Source: a virus (lineage: Duplodnaviria > Heunggongvirae > Uroviricota > Caudoviricetes). Taken from it: a stretch of 9,744 nucleotides of DNA. Under the pieces are notes generated by a model. That model searched no databases, was not told where the DNA came from, and saw only the letters and a program-made list of their open reading frames with translations. The position numbers and the translations under genes are program-made. This document shows, piece by piece, positions 1,511 to 9,666 of the stretch (within the stretch, counting starts at the first letter, position 1; each line of letters starts with the position of its first letter). Location of the stretch: the IMG/VR virus record IMGVR_UViG_3300026224_000017; one strand, 5' to 3'.

Positions 1511-2720
1511 ACTTGTTGACCTGAACCTGTGATGCCACCGTTGAAAAATAGGAATAGGTATCGCCATAAACCAGGCTTGTGTCTTTCGCCGGAAGAACAA
1601 TATGGCCGTTAATACCAATGCTCACACTGATTGTTGAGATCAACGTCGCATCAACCAGCAACCTGACGGAACTGGTAAAAATATCCTGGATACGCAGAAG
1701 ATTTATCGGGTGTCCGACTTCAATTGAATTGATGTAATCAGCAACGTTTTGCTGCACAGCCATAGCAATACCCGCCGGATCAACATAATCATCAGACACC
1801 GTGTTCCAGGTGATTAGCACCATGACGTTTTGTGATGACGGGATAACGAACGGCACCTGATAAACGTCCGGTGAAACGGTTATTGAAACCGTGCGTTTTT
1901 CCACTGCCGCACCGGATGGATTGCTAACATCGTTGGTCAGTTTCGAAATATCCGGTACAGATTTGTAAATCGCATAAGCCACATCATACGGATCACCGCC
2001 ACCAACAACCGCAACCCATTTCCCCAGCGACGACTGCCGGAAAGAAATCAGGTTTTCTCGCACACCGCTTACTGATTTGAGCATCGCTTTAAAGCAATCC
2101 GGTGTTCCCTGCACACCAAACATGCCGGACTCCATAACTTCGGCGCGATATGATGCCCATGTCTGCGCCTCCTGACCGGGCATACCTGCGGTAAGGTTCG
2201 TGCATTTTACAGGCTGGTCTTTGGGTACTGATGTAATGACCTGCGTTACAGTCCCTTCCGGTACAGCCCATGAGCCTGACGTTGTGGCCACACAGTAGAC
2301 TGGCTCAGTCTGCCCGCTTTCCGGTACCACCGTATCGCGGGAAACCGCATACTGGTAGTTACCATCTCCAACCACAAATCCTTTAGGGATACCAAACCCC
2401 GGCAACGCCTCAAACACCACGTATACCGCCGTATTTGTACTTAATCCCTTCTGTGCTCCATAAATGTTTCCGAGTTGCATCAGTAACGGAATATTTGCGC
2501 CGTATGGGCTTACGGAGTTAATAAGGTCCACCCGCGCCTGGTCTATTAATGCCAGCGCCCCGACTGCCGTGCTGGCAAGGTCTGTAATAAGTCCCGCAGG
2601 AAGGTTGGCTGTATATCCAGGTACTTTTTCAGCAACTCTGGTGATAAGATTTGCGAGCAAATCATTGGGTGGCGTAGGCTGCGCACCCGCACTGGTCATA
2701 GTAATTGGTATTTCTGACAT
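1494..2720 (-). CDS. Baseplate J-like protein (P2 gpJ / Mu gp47 / T4 gp6 family), 408 aa
   Basis: 408-aa ORF. The N-terminal third (NDLLANLITRVAEKVPGY ... ANIPLLMQLGNIYGAQKG ... PGFGIPKGFVVGDG) follows the conserved pattern of baseplate J family proteins. It is followed by an I-like gene and a fiber gene. No Shine-Dalgarno is visible upstream of the ATG at 2720. Confidence 0.65.
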   Translation of the reverse strand: MSEIPITMTSAGAQPTPPNDLLANLITRVAEKVPGYTANLPAGLITDLASTAVGALALIDQARVDLINSVSPYGANIPLLMQLGNIYGAQKGLSTNTAVYVVFEALPGFGIPKGFVVGDGNYQYAVSRDTVVPESGQTEPVYCVATTSGSWAVPEGTVTQVITSVPKDQPVKCTNLTAGMPGQEAQTWASYRAEVMESGMFGVQGTPDCFKAMLKSVSGVRENLISFRQSSLGKWVAVVGGGDPYDVAYAIYKSVPDISKLTNDVSNPSGAAVEKRTVSITVSPDVYQVPFVIPSSQNVMVLITWNTVSDDYVDPAGIAMAVQQNVADYINSIEVGHPINLLRIQDIFTSSVRLLVDATLISTISVSIGINGHIVLPAKDTSLVYGDTYSYFSTVASQVQVNKYAISD

Positions 2721-2757
2721 ATTTATTTATCACTTGAATACATTATAAGGAGATATA

Positions 2758-3234
2758 ATGCGGTTCTATTTCAACAAAAAAGGTCTTTCTGGTATTTCTG
2801 TATCAAGCGGAAGGAGTAGTGGTGGCTGTGGAACATTAATTGGAGTTGTCTTTATACTTTATTTAATTGGCCATTTTTCATCACCTTCCGATGAAGATAT
2901 TAAAAATGAATCATCATCTTATAAGACAGCAGTCGTTAAAAGCGACAAAATAATTTCCGAAATCTGCGATCAGTTTAGCACTGATGATTCCGCAAAAATA
3001 TTTTTTAATTCAAATCTAAACAAACATTGGTATAAAACAAAAGTTAAAGTAAATTCACTATCAGATCAAAGATTATCTGCGATTGATTTCAAAAATCCAG
3101 AATTAAAGTATGAAATAAGAATGTCTGATTCAAGACCATTAAGAGTAGGGGATATTATTTCCGTTGAATTTGTACCTACTGAATTCAGTAAGTATTCATG
3201 CGAAATCAGTGGCACAATAGGTAAGTACAAGTAA
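2758..3234 (+). CDS. Hypothetical membrane-anchored protein (single N-terminal transmembrane helix, ~120-aa C-terminal domain), 158 aa
   Basis: Strong RBS AAGGAG 5 nt before the ATG. A basic N-terminus is followed by a hydrophobic helix (TLIGVVFILYLIGHF) and then a K/S/D-rich domain. The gene is very AT-rich (sampled stretches about 20-35 percent GC) and ends 4 nt before an intrinsic terminator. No recognisable family by eye. Confidence 0.6.
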   Translation: MRFYFNKKGLSGISVSSGRSSGGCGTLIGVVFILYLIGHFSSPSDEDIKNESSSYKTAVVKSDKIISEICDQFSTDDSAKIFFNSNLNKHWYKTKVKVNSLSDQRLSAIDFKNPELKYEIRMSDSRPLRVGDIISVEFVPTEFSKYSCEISGTIGKYK

Positions 3235-3238
3235 CCTC

Positions 3239-3272
3239 AAAAAAAACAGCCCGCTGAACGCGGGCTGTTTTT
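3239..3272. terminator. Bidirectional rho-independent terminator shared by convergent genes 2758-3234 and 3271-3660
   Basis: A-run 3239-3246, 8-bp GC-rich stem cagcccgc (3247-3254) / gcgggctg (3260-3267), 5-nt loop, T-run 3268-3272. The A-run/T-run flanks make it functional in both orientations. Confidence 0.75.
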
Positions 3273-3660
3273 AATATACGCCACGAATAAGATCTTGGGT
3301 AAAAACATCACATCCTTCGCTACCTAATTGCAGTCTTTTCTTAAAGTACTCAATAATACCGTCATTATGAACGCCATTTTTGGAAATTTTTAACCACGTA
3401 TTGCTCCATTCTATACTTTGGAGTTTTGTTAAAGCCGCTTTTTCATTTCCTTCACTAACCAAGCGACACGATTCTGATAGTTGATCAGTTACAATCATTT
3501 CATTTCTCATATGCTGAAGCAATTGTCGCTGTTCTTCGCTTAAAGTAACATCTTGATTAGTAATGAGTCTTTCTGATTTTTCAATTGGCGTACCAATCGC
3601 ACACCAAGAGACGAATAAAATTGTAAATAAAGGGAGTGTAATTTTTATACTGACCGACAT
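3271..3660 (-). CDS. Hypothetical secreted/periplasmic protein with N-terminal signal sequence and two cysteines in the mature part, 129 aa
   Basis: ATG at 3660 is preceded by GAGG with a 5-nt spacer; the GTG at 3666 suggested by the ORF track sits inside that Shine-Dalgarno. The N-terminus MSVSIKITLPLFTILFVSWCAIG has n, h and c regions of a Sec signal peptide. AT-rich (about 33 percent GC in a sample). The stop overlaps the terminator T-run. Confidence 0.6.
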   Translation of the reverse strand: MSVSIKITLPLFTILFVSWCAIGTPIEKSERLITNQDVTLSEEQRQLLQHMRNEMIVTDQLSESCRLVSEGNEKAALTKLQSIEWSNTWLKISKNGVHNDGIIEYFKKRLQLGSEGCDVFTQDLIRGVY

Positions 3661-3689
3661 AATCACCTCATTATCAAATGTTCATGCGG

Positions 3690-3717
3690 ATTTTATCAAC
3701 GGTTTCCCTCTATTCAA
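3690..3717 (-). promoter_or_regulatory. Candidate sigma70 promoter for gene 3271-3660
   Basis: On the minus strand: -35 TTGAAT (3717-3712), 16-bp spacer, -10 TAAAAT (3695-3690). Predicted start near 3683, about 23 nt upstream of the ATG. Found by eye only. Confidence 0.35.
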
Positions 3718-3724
3718 ATCAGAC

Positions 3725-3752
3725 TTTACATCCATGAGCTATTGAGTATGAT
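3725..3752 (+). promoter_or_regulatory. Candidate sigma70 promoter for the antirepressor-like gene, back to back with the minus-strand promoter
   Basis: -35 TTTACA (3725-3730), 16-bp spacer, -10 TATGAT (3747-3752). The two -35 elements are 8 bp apart, a typical divergent promoter layout. Found by eye only. Confidence 0.35.
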
Positions 3753-3979
3753 TATGCGCATGAGGCGTCGAAACCTCTTTCACGCGGCCTAGACCAACCC
3801 CGTCAGTGTTGGATTTTTTATGCCTACAATTCAGTGATGGCACAATGTGCGGTCACATCCCCGATCAATGTCGGGAGGGCGACGAATACAACACCCGAAA
3901 GGGAAATAAGTCCGCGGTTTCGTGAAGCCGTTTCGAACCTCCTGGCACCACAATTTCGAAAAAATTTCACGAGGTTTCT

Positions 3980-4537
3980 ATGACCAGCCAATTAATTCCC
4001 GTATTCAACGGCATTGTTTCAAACGAAACTACCCTTCTCTGCAACGCTCGCGATCTGCACACCTTTCTCGAAGTAGGTAAACGCTTTGCTACTTGGATCA
4101 CCGAGCGAATCGGCGAGTATGAATTCATAGAAAATCAGGACTACATAGCTATTTCCCAAAAACGGGAAATAGGTCACGGACGAGGGAAAAAGGACTACCA
4201 CCTCACCCTGGACACCGCCAAAGAACTGGCAATGGTCGAGCGCAACGAAAAAGGCCGCCAGATCCGCCGATACTTCATCGAGTGCGAGAAGAAGCTGCGC
4301 GAGGATACCACCAGCACACAATCCCCTCTGAATGTTGACATCATCATGCGCGTCAGAAACGGCTCGGTTACCCACATTGAGCACCACAAATCAGGCTCAG
4401 TTATAACCACAGAATGGGCAATTCACTTACTACGCAAAAGTGGATGGATTGTCATGCCACGCGATGAACTTCTTAACACGCCACTGGCCCAACTGATGCC
4501 CGAAAATTTGACTCAAACCGGAACCTGCGTCCGGTAA
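3980..4537 (+). CDS. Phage antirepressor-like protein (AntA/AntB-type N-terminal domain), 185 aa
   Basis: GAGG 5 nt before the ATG. The N-terminus (LIPVFNG ... ARDLHTFLEVGKRFATWITERIGEYEFIENQDY) and central segment (LTLDTAKELAMVERNEKGRQIRRYFIECEKKL) match the pattern I associate with AntA/AntB antirepressor proteins. The C-terminal ~70 aa are not recognisable. Confidence 0.6.
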   Translation: MTSQLIPVFNGIVSNETTLLCNARDLHTFLEVGKRFATWITERIGEYEFIENQDYIAISQKREIGHGRGKKDYHLTLDTAKELAMVERNEKGRQIRRYFIECEKKLREDTTSTQSPLNVDIIMRVRNGSVTHIEHHKSGSVITTEWAIHLLRKSGWIVMPRDELLNTPLAQLMPENLTQTGTCVR

Positions 4538-4860
4538 CTGGTCCCATTAAAAAACACAACATCGATGTTATAGGTGGGGTTCTCTGCCCCATCTACCTTT
4601 GAAATTGCCAGCGATGCAAAATACCCGGCAAACTGTTGCTGAACCATGTTCACATAGTAGTCCGGGTAAATTTGCTGCACGATGCACTGCTGCGCTGGAA
4701 TGCCGTAATTCGCGTAAAACGGCGACTCCCCCAACCCCAGCTTTAACGTCTGAATGAGCGTCGTCAGCCAGCCGTAGGAGAAATCACCGCTGGCGTCAGA
4801 TTCTACAGCAACCCATTTTTTGTTGCCGTTCGCGTCGGTGACGCGGCCCCATGTTCTCAT
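4513..4860 (-). CDS. Baseplate wedge protein, gp25 / P2 gpW-like, 115 aa
   Basis: Contains GESPFYANYG, which fits the G-x-x-P-F-x-x-x-[FY]-G core of gp25/W proteins (compare T4 gp25 GSRPFDPEFG). Size matches P2 gpW (115 aa). It lies between the spike and J genes. Its ATG is 3 nt after the stop of the preceding small ORF. Confidence 0.5.
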   Translation of the reverse strand: MRTWGRVTDANGNKKWVAVESDASGDFSYGWLTTLIQTLKLGLGESPFYANYGIPAQQCIVQQIYPDYYVNMVQQQFAGYFASLAISKVDGAENPTYNIDVVFFNGTSYRTQVPV

Positions 4861-4863
4861 GCG

Positions 4864-5028
4864 TCAACCTTTCAAGTAAATTAGGGTACCGGTAGCCAGA
4901 GCGGTACAAATGATCCACGCTACTGGAGTCAGAATATGCCGAATACCCTGACATACTGCGATTATTCTCGCAGCCTTATCAGCTCCTTGTGGGGTTGTCT
5001 CAGCCTTAAGAATCAGTTCGCTATCCAT
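4864..5028 (-). CDS. Hypothetical small protein with C-terminal transmembrane helix, 54 aa
   Basis: Translation verified by hand: MDSELILKAETTPQGADKAARIIAVCQGIRHILTPVAWIICTALATGTLIYLKG. Its ATG overlaps the stop of the upstream small ORF (ATGGATAG), and its TGA is 3 nt before the W-like ATG. Not in the ORF track, presumably because it is under the length cutoff. Confidence 0.35.
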   Translation of the reverse strand: MDSELILKAETTPQGADKAARIIAVCQGIRHILTPVAWIICTALATGTLIYLKG

Positions 5029-5188
5029 TTAGAACCTTTATGATCTCTGCGATTCCCGGAAGCGATTTAGCAACTGCAAACCCTCCGATAACTATAAGAA
5101 CTGCATAAAACATTCTTCTCAGAACCGGACTTCTTTCGAGCAATTTTAGAGCTTCCACAATCCAGTCTCCTCCGCTAAAATTAATCAC
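5021..5188 (-). CDS. Hypothetical small membrane peptide (single hydrophobic helix), 55 aa from GTG or 30 aa from the internal ATG
   Basis: GTG at 5188 is preceded by GGAGG (5199-5195) with a 6-nt spacer. Translation: VINFSGGDWIVEALKLLERSPVLRRMFYAVLIVIGGFAVAKSLPGIAEIIKVLNG. It lies downstream of the hairpin at 5244-5275 and is coupled to the next ORF. Confidence 0.35.
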   Translation of the reverse strand: MINFSGGDWIVEALKLLERSPVLRRMFYAVLIVIGGFAVAKSLPGIAEIIKVLNG

Positions 5189-5243
5189 GGAAGACCTCCA
5201 AACATACGTAATTATCCCTTGCCTTATTCAAGGTCAGAAACAG

Positions 5244-5275
5244 AAAGCCCCGACTGTTTGCCCAGTCGGGGCTTT
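5244..5275. terminator. Strong GC-rich stem-loop (terminator- or attenuator-like) just downstream of the spike gene
   Basis: 13-bp perfect inverted repeat aaagccccgactg (5244-5256) / cagtcggggcttt (5263-5275) with a 6-nt loop. Flanking sequence is moderately T-rich on both strands. It sits about 38 nt after the stop of the 5314-6027 gene. Confidence 0.5.
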
Positions 5276-5313
5276 CGCTTTATGGATAGAATTTAAAGTG
5301 AAATGAACCGGTA

Positions 5314-6027
5314 TTAACCCGGATTTGGTTTCTTTGACGTGATCGTGCTGTTGCCGCTTTGAACCCCAGTCACATCGTGGCTGTGACCGCTGGCGCTGAC
5401 ACCTTTTATCATCGCGTCGTTTTGCACAGTAAGCGGGCCAATCAGCGAAGCGGTTGTATCCTTCATCTGGGCTTTGTCCTGGACGATCGGTCCGTTGAGG
5501 TGAATTTTCCCGTTCAGGAAAATATCTTCGGCCTCGAGGTAAACAGCTTTCGACTTTTGCCTGATTTCTTCCGGTGCCACCGTTACCGAGCTACTGCCGT
5601 CCTCTGTTTTGAGGATCGCGCCATCCGGACCGTACAAAACGATCTTTTGCGGATCTTCGTCGGACCAGTCCTTGTTTGCCAGTGGCACGAAAAACAGTGG
5701 AGTGAGCGACATCGAGTAAGAGAGCGTCGCCATACCGGTTCCCAATCCGGACACACCGCGCAGGGATACATCAGCGGCAATTGTTACTCCTCGATCGCCC
5801 GGCTGTATCGGGTAACGAATATACGGGAATGTGGCGACAGGGATTGTTATCTGCGGAAAGTTGATCCCCTCCGGCAGCATATCAAACTGAACTGTCACTA
5901 TCTGCCCGCTGACACCGACAACATGGCAGGGCAATTCACGACCTTTAAGCTCGGCTTGCTGGTTACCAGAACTGGTCATCATCTCCGACAGCGTTCGGAG
6001 AAACGGTAATTTTTGAGCGTTTGACAT
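5314..6027 (-). CDS. Baseplate spike protein, P2 gpV / Mu gp45-like, 237 aa
   Basis: Size and position match. The C-terminal region has a His-containing apex-like motif (GHSHDVTGVQSG) and a Gly/Ser/Thr-rich beta-type sequence, as in gpV-type spikes. Its start overlaps the stop of the upstream hub-position gene. Confidence 0.6.
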   Translation of the reverse strand: MSNAQKLPFLRTLSEMMTSSGNQQAELKGRELPCHVVGVSGQIVTVQFDMLPEGINFPQITIPVATFPYIRYPIQPGDRGVTIAADVSLRGVSGLGTGMATLSYSMSLTPLFFVPLANKDWSDEDPQKIVLYGPDGAILKTEDGSSSVTVAPEEIRQKSKAVYLEAEDIFLNGKIHLNGPIVQDKAQMKDTTASLIGPLTVQNDAMIKGVSASGHSHDVTGVQSGNSTITSKKPNPG

Positions 6028-7968: not shown

Positions 7969-9441
7969 TTACCCCGGTATTTGTTGCGTTCCGGCGAGTT
8001 GTGCCAGTATGTCGGAACCCGGCGATTGTCGCACCTGAAGCTCAATTATTGCGCGGGCATTTTTGCCAGCACCCTGAAGATTATCTCTGGCATTTCTTAG
8101 CTGATTCATAATACCAGGGTGTTGATCCAGGGCTCCCTGAATCTGAGGCAATAATTTAATTAAATATTTTACAGTCTCCATTCTCAAACTTAGATTTCCA
8201 TCTCTATCAATACGACCTCCGTTATATGCCGTAAGCATTTTTGCCACATCGCCTTTATAACGCCGATTCAGATCATTTAAAAAGCGGCCAGCCGCAAGAG
8301 TGGATTTATTTGGGTCATAAACATCATCACCCACCAGACCATACTGTTTTGCGGTGCTATCCCAGAATTGCCACAACCCCTTAGCGAATCTACCTTTTTC
8401 ATCAGGAGTTCCTCTTGCCAGAGGATTCCACGAAGATTCAACTTCTGCGATAGCTGACATCATATTTTTAGGAAGTCGATAAGTATTATTGGCTTGCTCT
8501 ACAAAGTTCTGAATATTTCTCTTTAAATCATTAGGCATACGGTAATTTTTATATACATCATCCTGTTTATAAAACTCACCCGTATACTGATTTGTCATCG
8601 GGTTTGCTCCCGGCAACGCACCACCGAGATATTTATTTCCAAATGCCGCAAGAACTGGATCTGCCTGTTCAGCACCAACTCCGGTTCCGGGGAGATATTT
8701 ATCTTCCCCACCGATCCATTTGATAGCTGACCATATTGCTTTTGCAATCCGGCTCACCGCCAGAGAAAAATCGTCAAGATCATTTTTAAATTGTTCGCTA
8801 TTCAGCCACTTACCAAGTTTCTCCAGCCCTTCGCCAGCCTCAGCGAGAATTTTCTGAAAATTTCCACCATTCAGAAAACCTTCAATATTGGATGTCAGCC
8901 CATCAGATGCACCTGTGATTAGTGGGTTATATCTGGCGAGAGCTGCATACCAGGAATTTGATATTCTGTTTCCATTTACCATCAGGTTACTCACCGTATC
9001 CTGATAACCTGACTGCATAGCTGGCGTGAGGTAAGCACCGAGCAACCTAGTATTTGATGCAAATTTCTCGTTCAGTTGGGGGATCTTGTCCAGATTCGCT
9101 TCCACCTGGTTAGTTGTCGCGACATCAACAAATCCAAGCCCTTGTCCGTTGAGAATCCCCTGAGTAAGTCCTGAACCTTTATATTGCTTAACGAGAGATG
9201 CAAGCGCGCTCATAAGTTTGGGCAGATTCTTTGCTGCACCATCTCGAGGATCAATTCCAAGACTGACCAGACCAGCATAGTTTGGATCATTTGGATTTTT
9301 CTGTGCGTTCGCCAGATGCTGAACCAGTTCTTCTGTGCCAGAAAAATATGGCGAATAGGTGGCACGTGCGGCCTGCATCTGTGCGGTTTCCATACCCAGC
9401 CCCTGAGCCACGCTGTATTGCGCTGCAACCTTGCTCGCCAT
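7969..9441 (-). CDS. Tail-associated protein with lytic transglycosylase (SLT) domain, probably tape measure or tail lysin; at least 490 aa
   Basis: Clear SLT catalytic region AIAEVESSWNP ... GLWQFWDSTA ... TAYNGG (approximately 8200-8480), verified by back-translation. The first ATG is at 9441, but the same frame stays open upstream to 9651 (about 70 more codons) with no canonical start codon. Confidence 0.7.
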   Translation of the reverse strand: MASKVAAQYSVAQGLGMETAQMQAARATYSPYFSGTEELVQHLANAQKNPNDPNYAGLVSLGIDPRDGAAKNLPKLMSALASLVKQYKGSGLTQGILNGQGLGFVDVATTNQVEANLDKIPQLNEKFASNTRLLGAYLTPAMQSGYQDTVSNLMVNGNRISNSWYAALARYNPLITGASDGLTSNIEGFLNGGNFQKILAEAGEGLEKLGKWLNSEQFKNDLDDFSLAVSRIAKAIWSAIKWIGGEDKYLPGTGVGAEQADPVLAAFGNKYLGGALPGANPMTNQYTGEFYKQDDVYKNYRMPNDLKRNIQNFVEQANNTYRLPKNMMSAIAEVESSWNPLARGTPDEKGRFAKGLWQFWDSTAKQYGLVGDDVYDPNKSTLAAGRFLNDLNRRYKGDVAKMLTAYNGGRIDRDGNLSLRMETVKYLIKLLPQIQGALDQHPGIMNQLRNARDNLQGAGKNARAIIELQVRQSPGSDILAQLAGTQQIPG

Positions 9442-9666
9442 ATATCCGTACCCGAAAGCACCGACCGAACCAAGCGCCGCAATTTTGCTCCCCCAGGATA
9501 CAGTCGTTTTAAACAGCGTTTTCAGTCGTGAATTGGTCGTTTTAAGCGTTGAATTGATCTGCTTGTAAGTTTTCAGCGTCCCCTGAGCGTTTTTACCCAG
9601 ACTACTGAGATACTTATCAAATGAACCGCCCCGGGTTTCCTGGAGAGTGTTTTATCTGTGAACTCA

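Follow-up and report, generated by a model that had tools for sequence, protein, structure and literature searches.

We analysed a 9,744-nucleotide stretch of viral DNA (IMG/VR record IMGVR_UViG_3300026224_000017; "the window" below means this whole stretch), which is the tail module of a Rac-site prophage of E. coli, and focused on a 158-residue open reading frame (ORF) at positions 2758-3234 of its plus strand. This ORF is a real coding gene under purifying selection and a horizontally acquired, cassette-borne prophage moron. Its product is predicted to hold an OB-fold domain in the periplasm by means of a single transmembrane helix, and the family to which it belongs recurs in the tail modules of contractile-tailed prophages. 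We tentatively propose, at a probability of about 0.4, that the protein is a superinfection-exclusion factor acting at the periplasm or inner-membrane step of genome delivery.

A moron gene for a predicted membrane-tethered OB-fold protein

We first considered whether the ORF could be a chance product of AT-rich DNA. Shuffling the cassette that carries it gave an ORF of at least 158 residues in 0 of 2000 shuffles, the longest ORF averaging 58 residues, and the analytic probability is approximately 8e-6, which together argue that it did not arise by chance. Comparison with two Salmonella orthologues (79% and 71% identical) gave a dN/dS of 0.16-0.24; codons 1-40 (0.10-0.17), which encode the cytoplasmic tail and transmembrane helix, were more constrained than the periplasmic domain (0.18-0.28). 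The Shine-Dalgarno stretch TAAGGAGAT matches the anti-Shine-Dalgarno complement at eight of nine bases, and its AAGGAG is kept at the orthologous Salmonella loci in alignment. The GC content of the ORF is 31.9% (23.3% at third codon positions), compared with 46.4% for the whole window and approximately 49% for the flanking baseplate-J and antA genes. A 99.6%-identical copy is annotated in RefSeq as hypothetical protein WP_086590320.1. An earlier reading made from the letters of the DNA (the sequence-only reading) had called an ORF at exactly these coordinates, on this strand and of this length, with a strong ribosome-binding site and very low GC content, and all of this agrees with our results.

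We then examined the topology of the protein. Its sole hydrophobic segment comprises residues 24-40 (helix 26-38 in the structural model), is preceded by an invariant G23-C24 pair and is followed directly by an acidic juxtamembrane linker, SPSDED. The cytoplasmic tail carries a motif that is kept across the family in alignments, M-R-x-x-x-N-x-[KR]-G-x-x-x-[IV]-S-x-S. The flank preceding the helix has +4 to +6 positive and 0 to -1 negative charges in the seven full-length members of the family and +1/0 in the N-terminally shorter member P0004. The flank after the helix is acidic in all eight members. On the basis of the positive-inside rule, all eight are predicted with good support to be bitopic, with the N terminus inside and the C terminus outside. 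We also considered C24 as a lipoprotein cysteine and rejected this, as the residue stands before the hydrophobic segment rather than after it and there is no lipobox. A likeness of the N-terminal motif to DUF4236 (PF14020) was likewise dropped: hmmscan found no match at E <= 10 with the fragment or with any member, and the literature on DUF4236 was uninformative.

The C-terminal domain is predicted with good support to be an OB-fold. The AlphaFold2 (AF2) model of residues 41-158 has helices at 45-54, 62-70 and 76-87, followed by a five-stranded OB-fold barrel at 90-157. The C-terminal 118 residues are net neutral, and across the family these domains are neutral to acidic, with +14 to +18 positive versus -13 to -22 negative charges. 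Two cysteines, C70 and C148, are invariant in family alignments, consistent with an oxidising periplasm, and a disulfide between them probably stabilises the domain. A first, weak model (mean predicted local distance difference test score, pLDDT, of 59) had given only GFP-like noise in a Foldseek search of the PDB (TM score <0.2) and was discarded. The confident model resembles PF12869 (tRNA_anti-like), a family of envelope-anchored OB-fold proteins that includes 3f1z, a Klebsiella 'putative nucleic acid-binding lipoprotein', and does so at the level of fold only: the PF12869 hidden Markov model (HMM) matched one of eight family members, below threshold (E = 0.21), and did not match the window protein. 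Unlike PF12869 proteins, which are themselves without established function, the 158-residue protein has an uncleaved transmembrane helix and a conserved cytoplasmic tail in place of a lipid anchor. The anatomy given in the sequence-only reading, a type-II protein with a short basic N terminus, one helix and a C-terminal domain of ~120 residues, is therefore the one that we predict from sequence rules (one transmembrane segment, a basic flank before it, an acidic flank after it and two invariant cysteines), and the structure prediction and fold search that it had recommended gave a confident OB-fold.

Family searches comprised two word-seeded searches over 5.8 billion clusters and one exhaustive HMMER search over 1.84 billion representatives. 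They yielded approximately eight clusters, and the identified members all come from E. coli or Salmonella. The family consists of the E. coli protein, three Salmonella variants with 69-79% identity, a metagenomic form that is 43% identical and a divergent subfamily with 31-36% identity (P0006 and P0008 from Salmonella and the metagenomic P0005). Only one of 5,426 RefSeq complete E. coli genomes has the gene, which corresponds to one of 88 related prophage loci; an exact-protein index places the protein on many draft assemblies, and a search of IMG/VR for relatives returned three loci only. With tblastn, we found no match in 50,697 phage genomes at E <= 1 and none in 72,556 plasmids, and 185,579 GTDB species-representative genomes held no relative. 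A profile search of the sequences of solved structures gave nothing below E = 1. Pfam and NCBIfam gave no significant match for the protein, and PADLOC gave none at E <= 1 for the protein, its neighbour or the alternative cargo proteins described below. A weak match to PHROG 8815, a family of no known function, was found for three of the eight members (best E = 0.0037). At the level of sequence the protein is thus an orphan, as had been claimed, and a search for a housekeeping or virion family to which it might belong came out negative. Two weaker candidates were set aside: a Pfam RHD_dimer match at E = 0.02-0.04, far below threshold and taken as chance, and P0007, a 2,236-residue repetitive surface protein with five matches to residues 112-152 (E = 2e-5) that are short and compositional.

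An exchangeable slot in contractile-tail modules

Strain ETEC1716 is the closest match to the window, 85% of which is covered by the sequenced phage Rac-SA53; publications on this phage offered nothing of relevance. The minus strand of the window encodes an SLT-domain tail protein, a baseplate hub, a spike-like baseplate protein and baseplate J. The corresponding ETEC1716 prophage has tail sheath, portal and terminase genes, and it is because of this sheath gene that we take the tail to be contractile. Sibling prophages define the limits of the cassette around the 158-residue gene, as blastn homology with them ends at 2725-2729 on the left and restarts at 3722-3743 on the right. The cassette is flanked by the start codon of baseplate J (2718-2720, minus strand) and by the conserved leader of antA, an AntA-family antirepressor gene at 3980-4537.

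Other prophages carry different cargo in the same slot. It holds a 179-residue signal-peptide protein in E. coli M8, a 163-residue signal-peptide protein and a 227-residue cytoplasmic protein in W13-16, and two signal-peptide proteins in Rac-SA53. We found at least five unrelated cassettes in this position (2726-3721 in the window; compare L002 6127-6688, L003 6132-7430, L025 3721-5052 and L004 8478-9122). Contractile-tailed prophages at the Rac site therefore have a hotspot of cargo exchange between baseplate J and the antA leader, and what it carries is mostly genes for signal-peptide or membrane proteins. That the 158-residue gene is a moron follows from the difference in GC content between the gene and its flanks together with its presence or absence among otherwise collinear prophages. 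This bears out the earlier description of it as a prophage accessory gene, with the addition that the low-GC cassette is swapped for other cargo in sibling prophages.

The most informative result of the family comparison is that this context recurs. In every case the family member lies among the tail genes of a contractile-tailed prophage, in antisense orientation to them, and this holds for two unrelated lineages: the subfamily with ~33% identity is found antisense between gpX/gpD and gpU of P2-like prophages.

A second gene usually accompanies the family member. In the window this is a convergent gene for a signal-peptide, lipoprotein-like protein, which is linked to the 158-residue gene in all eight E. 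coli contexts; the pair is retained in the Salmonella locus L026 (69% identity for the 158-residue protein and 60% for the partner). This partner is a narrow orphan of 129-142 residues, found in E. coli and one Salmonella lineage. Its Salmonella homologues P0018 and P0017 have a canonical lipobox, LLSG/C, and the window copy has a non-canonical VSW/C (the slash marks the position before the cysteine). In other Salmonella, the family member is followed by a co-directional gene for a 200-residue, four-transmembrane protein with a small C-terminal domain (L004 8492-9094, plus strand), and in P2-like prophages it stands beside a co-directional gene for a bitopic protein of 220-236 residues. P0004 is preceded by a gene for a signal-peptide protein and P0005 has no companion gene. 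These partner proteins are unrelated to one another, and hhalign detected no paralogy between the OB-fold protein and the co-directional Salmonella partners. Because the partners vary in this way, the OB-fold protein is the constant unit. The co-directional Salmonella membrane proteins (L004, L010) have no family assignment; the 220-residue bitopic protein at L010 8571-9233 (plus strand) has a C-terminal pattern, W...V and GDxVxF, that looks OB-like by eye.

Between the stop codons of the two convergent genes in the window lies a hairpin at 3242-3272 that folds on both strands. The folding free energy is -22 kcal/mol (z = -5.7) for the plus-strand RNA, with T5 after it, and -29.1 kcal/mol (z = -7.0) for the minus-strand RNA, with U8 after it. 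A consensus terminator scan did not pick up this hairpin, probably as its A8/T5 flanks pair together and use up the T-run. Given its position and the folding of both strands, we regard it as a terminator common to the two genes. The sequence-only reading was right that the 158-residue gene ends at a terminator, but not that the terminator is dedicated to it, since it is shared with the gene at 3271-3660. Coordinates are collected in Table 1.

Table 1. Positions of the gene, the parts of its product and the nearby signals in the window
Feature	Position	Strand	Description and basis
Exchangeable cargo cassette	2726-3721		GC 33.6%; ~1 kb; blastn against sibling prophages, composition
Shine-Dalgarno AAGGAG	2747-2752	+	5 nt before the ATG of the 158-residue gene; read from sequence
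Coding sequence of the 158-residue protein	2758-3234	+	ATG start, TAA at 3232-3234; ORF list
Basic cytoplasmic tail (predicted), codons 1-23	2758-2826	+	+4/0 charges; AF2 pLDDT <50
Single transmembrane helix (predicted) CGTLIGVVFILYLIGHF, codons 24-40	2827-2877	+	Kyte-Doolittle 17-mer 2.06
Predicted periplasmic domain, codons 41-158	2878-3231	+	118 residues; AF2 pLDDT >90
Bidirectional intrinsic terminator	3242-3272	both	13-bp stem (8 G-C core pairs), 5-nt loop, A8/T5 flanks
Convergent partner gene	3271-3660	-	129 residues (131 from GTG 3666); signal peptide, lipoprotein-like; ORF list
Partner-gene promoter-like site	3690-3717	-	TTGAAT, 16 nt, TG-TAAAAT (extended -10), within the cassette; consensus match only

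Proposed exclusion of incoming phages and its alternatives

The proposal that the 158-residue protein excludes superinfecting phages draws on its architecture, its recurrent position in contractile-tail modules, the envelope-directed cargo of the hotspot and precedent. The exported or membrane nature of most alternative cargo in the slot fits an envelope-directed function. As precedent, HK97 gp15 is the product of a moron in the tail operon; once inserted in the inner membrane it prevents injection of the genome, and sensitivity to it depends on the tail region of the phage (PMC3594210). SieA, Sie2009 and Ltp are also membrane proteins that block injection (PMC10883804), and T4 Sp acts on the tail lysozyme, preventing peptidoglycan degradation by modulating this enzyme (PMC11436027). 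SieA, T4 Sp and Imm are, like the 158-residue protein, small and phage-encoded; they are proteins of the cytoplasmic membrane and act after adsorption, at the periplasm or inner-membrane step (PMC11436027, PMC10883804).

If the protein works in a comparable manner, a lysogen would be protected at its envelope by the tethered periplasmic OB domain. This domain would bind a target that emerges on the outer side of the inner membrane as infection proceeds, which could be the tip, the tape-measure end or the lytic-transglycosylase end of the incoming contractile tail, or an inner-membrane host factor that the tail uses, and such binding would stop the phage genome from crossing the inner membrane. 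The SLT lytic-transglycosylase domain in the tail protein of this prophage type, taken together with the case of T4 Sp, makes that domain a possible target, purely by inference. It is plausible that the protein blocks DNA injection, which was one of two examples of envelope action offered in the sequence-only reading. The other, receptor masking, is unlikely for a domain of 118 residues tethered to the inner membrane, judging from its size. We also considered whether the protein might be a decoy of the phage's own spike protein, for which hhalign was negative.

For HK97 gp15 and its relative YebO, there was no match to Pfam YebO, and the tblastn search of the 50,697 phage genomes was negative at E <= 1. 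Unlike gp15, the 158-residue protein has a folded periplasmic OB domain of ~118 residues in its model, and its gene is antisense to the tail operon and found in contractile-tailed prophages, whereas HK97 is of the siphovirus type. SieA has three predicted transmembrane helices and no large periplasmic domain (PMC10883804), unlike the present protein, and Sp and Imm are proteins of a virulent phage; none of these proteins shares sequence with the family.

Several observations weigh against exclusion as the function. Neither tblastn against the phage genomes (E <= 1) nor PADLOC revealed similarity to known exclusion proteins, and an OB-fold says little about what is bound. The companion gene varies (lipoprotein-like, four-transmembrane or another bitopic protein), so that a different, two-protein mechanism is possible. 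A consensus scan found no sigma-70 promoter upstream of the gene. The ATG lies only 37 bp from the start codon of the divergent baseplate-J gene, and other cargo variants share homology that reaches to within ~30 bp of this ATG, so any promoter must overlap the 5' end of the baseplate-J gene. By eye, the best that the sequence offers is a weak candidate with TTGGTA at 2705-2710 and TATCAC at 2728-2733, 17 nt apart, and its -10 element is poorly conserved, being TATTAT in L004 and TATCGC in L008, both Salmonella loci. The earlier claim of independent, lysogenic expression accordingly found no promoter to lean on and stands on the orientation of the gene, which is antisense to the late tail operon and for this reason cannot join the late tail transcript. 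Expression in lysogens is nevertheless plausible. Finally, tail-module morons also encode virulence or fitness factors, such as lambda Lom and the Salmonella phage effector SopE (PMC3594210).

This last point, that morons often carry factors of benefit to the host, favours an alternative that we consider unlikely, in which the protein is an envelope fitness or stress factor whose periplasmic OB domain binds a small ligand, a cationic antimicrobial peptide or an envelope protein and helps the host independently of phages. The predicted periplasmic OB-fold itself is consistent with such a role, as are the mostly animal or enteric origin of the carrier strains and the small lipoprotein-like protein encoded by the partner gene, which is reminiscent of lambda Bor in size and type. 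Two reports describe OB-fold proteins of the periplasm that cells require to survive stress and that bind antimicrobial peptides (PMC6370654, PMC5636140). The BOF family (YgiW, YdeI and Vibrio SipA), which also consists of periplasmic OB-folds of Gram-negative bacteria, works through binding of this kind. However, BOF proteins belong to the core genome and are soluble after secretion and cleavage of their signal peptide, whereas the present protein is prophage-carried and membrane-tethered with a conserved cytoplasmic tail, and no family member matches the Pfam BOF model or that of another family. A fitness role would also leave unexplained the membrane tether and the strict confinement of the family to the tail modules of contractile-tail prophages.

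The constraint on the cytoplasmic tail and transmembrane helix, the most constrained parts of the protein, is what would be expected for signalling or membrane oligomerisation, and a second membrane or exported protein accompanies the family nearly always. Both observations would fit a sensor or abortive-infection protein anchored in the membrane, of the AbiP/PdpSau type. Its OB domain would recognise some component of the phage and set off damage to the membrane, and the effector might then be the neighbouring membrane protein, which varies, such as the four-transmembrane one of Salmonella. PdpSau, from an S. aureus prophage, and lactococcal AbiP are proteins of Gram-positive bacteria, encoded by a prophage or by the host, in which an N-terminal helix provides the membrane anchor and an OB-fold-like region comes after it; PdpSau causes abortive infection with membrane depolarisation (PMC10127798). 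In those proteins, however, the OB region is reported to be cytoplasmic, basic and nucleic-acid-binding, whereas here the prediction is for a periplasmic domain, which has a neutral to acidic charge and two invariant cysteines; the PdpSau/AbiP system also differs in size (278 residues compared with 158). In addition, the partner is not conserved, with three unrelated proteins in this position, none for P0005 and no paralogy by hhalign, and PADLOC gave no match. We therefore regard this mechanism as very unlikely.

A role in the phage's own lytic cycle, as one half of a spanin-like pair or as a lysis or tail-assembly accessory, appears extremely improbable. The gene does lie inside the tail module, and a type-II protein beside a lipoprotein-like gene superficially resembles an i-spanin/o-spanin pair. 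But the two genes are convergent with a common terminator and hence not co-transcribed, the 158-residue gene is antisense to the late operon, and the prophage has a separate lysis cassette (L001 40269-40873). The periplasmic domain is a predicted OB-fold and not the coiled coil expected of an i-spanin. We rejected a two-component spanin on these grounds, namely convergent genes outside the lysis cassette and a predicted OB-fold domain. Moreover, the phage can dispense with the gene, given that it is missing from approximately 87 of the 88 related prophages found in complete E. coli genomes. We leave roughly a quarter of the probability to some other, unforeseen envelope function.

A more specific version of the exclusion proposal is that the family is a new class of injection blocker particular to contractile-tailed temperate phages, which we consider quite unlikely. 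The OB domain would then capture the incoming tail tip (the spike, tape-measure or SLT end) once the tail has penetrated the outer membrane, an event that would be tuned or relayed by the conserved cytoplasmic tail of the protein and its variable membrane partner, and envelope-directed exclusion genes would have a hotspot dedicated to them between baseplate J and antA. In the literature on exclusion, we met no description of a moron-encoded injection blocker in temperate myovirus-type phages of enterobacteria.

Other features of the window and wider relevance

The prophage copy in the window is probably defective. Its SLT-domain tail gene (7969-9621, minus strand), which is tape-measure-like, is interrupted, with homology to an intact 662-residue gene stopping at 9621; in-frame stops at 9664-9666 and 9652-9654 lie upstream of this point, and 9603-9744 matches the terminal part of an IS3-family insertion sequence. 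The conserved ~260-nt antA leader contains a full-length match to the Rfam family RF02221, sRNA-Xcc1, at 3870-3954 (plus strand; 69.7 bits, E = 2e-11, above the gathering score), which may regulate the antirepressor. A promoter-like TTTACA-16-TATGAT is found at 3725-3752. The 3' ends of antA (3980-4537, plus strand) and of a convergent 115-residue tail-module gene (4513-4860, minus strand) overlap by 25 nt (4513-4537).

A second variable slot, at 4861-5313, lies between this 115-residue gene and the spike-like baseplate gene (5314-6027). Here the window is ~204 bp longer than ETEC1716 and has ORFs at 4864-5028 and 5021-5188, the latter with a hydrophobic segment. In other genomes, the slot is occupied by a pRha/ORF11CD3 gene or a YafO-toxin pair. 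At L001 35694-37130 (minus strand), RefSeq names a 478-residue protein 'anti-CBASS protein Acb1 family', yet it matches the portal family phrog_146 (E = 2e-74). By position this gene encodes the portal, and the RefSeq name is probably misleading.

A low-GC prophage moron that encodes a small envelope protein in a tail-module hotspot belongs to a well-known kind, OB-folds are common, and the family is new only in not having been named before. If the protein turns out to be a stress or fitness factor, or to have no phenotype, the 158-residue gene is one more uncharacterised moron. If exclusion is its function, a tethered periplasmic OB-fold would join the few proteins that block genome entry at the inner membrane, and the passage of contractile-tailed temperate phages through the periplasm, which is poorly understood, would become easier to study. 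The cargo-swap slot of Rac-site prophages itself provides a candidate list for screening envelope-acting prophage functions, and such a screen would be relevant to pig-, cattle- and human-associated E. coli and Salmonella.

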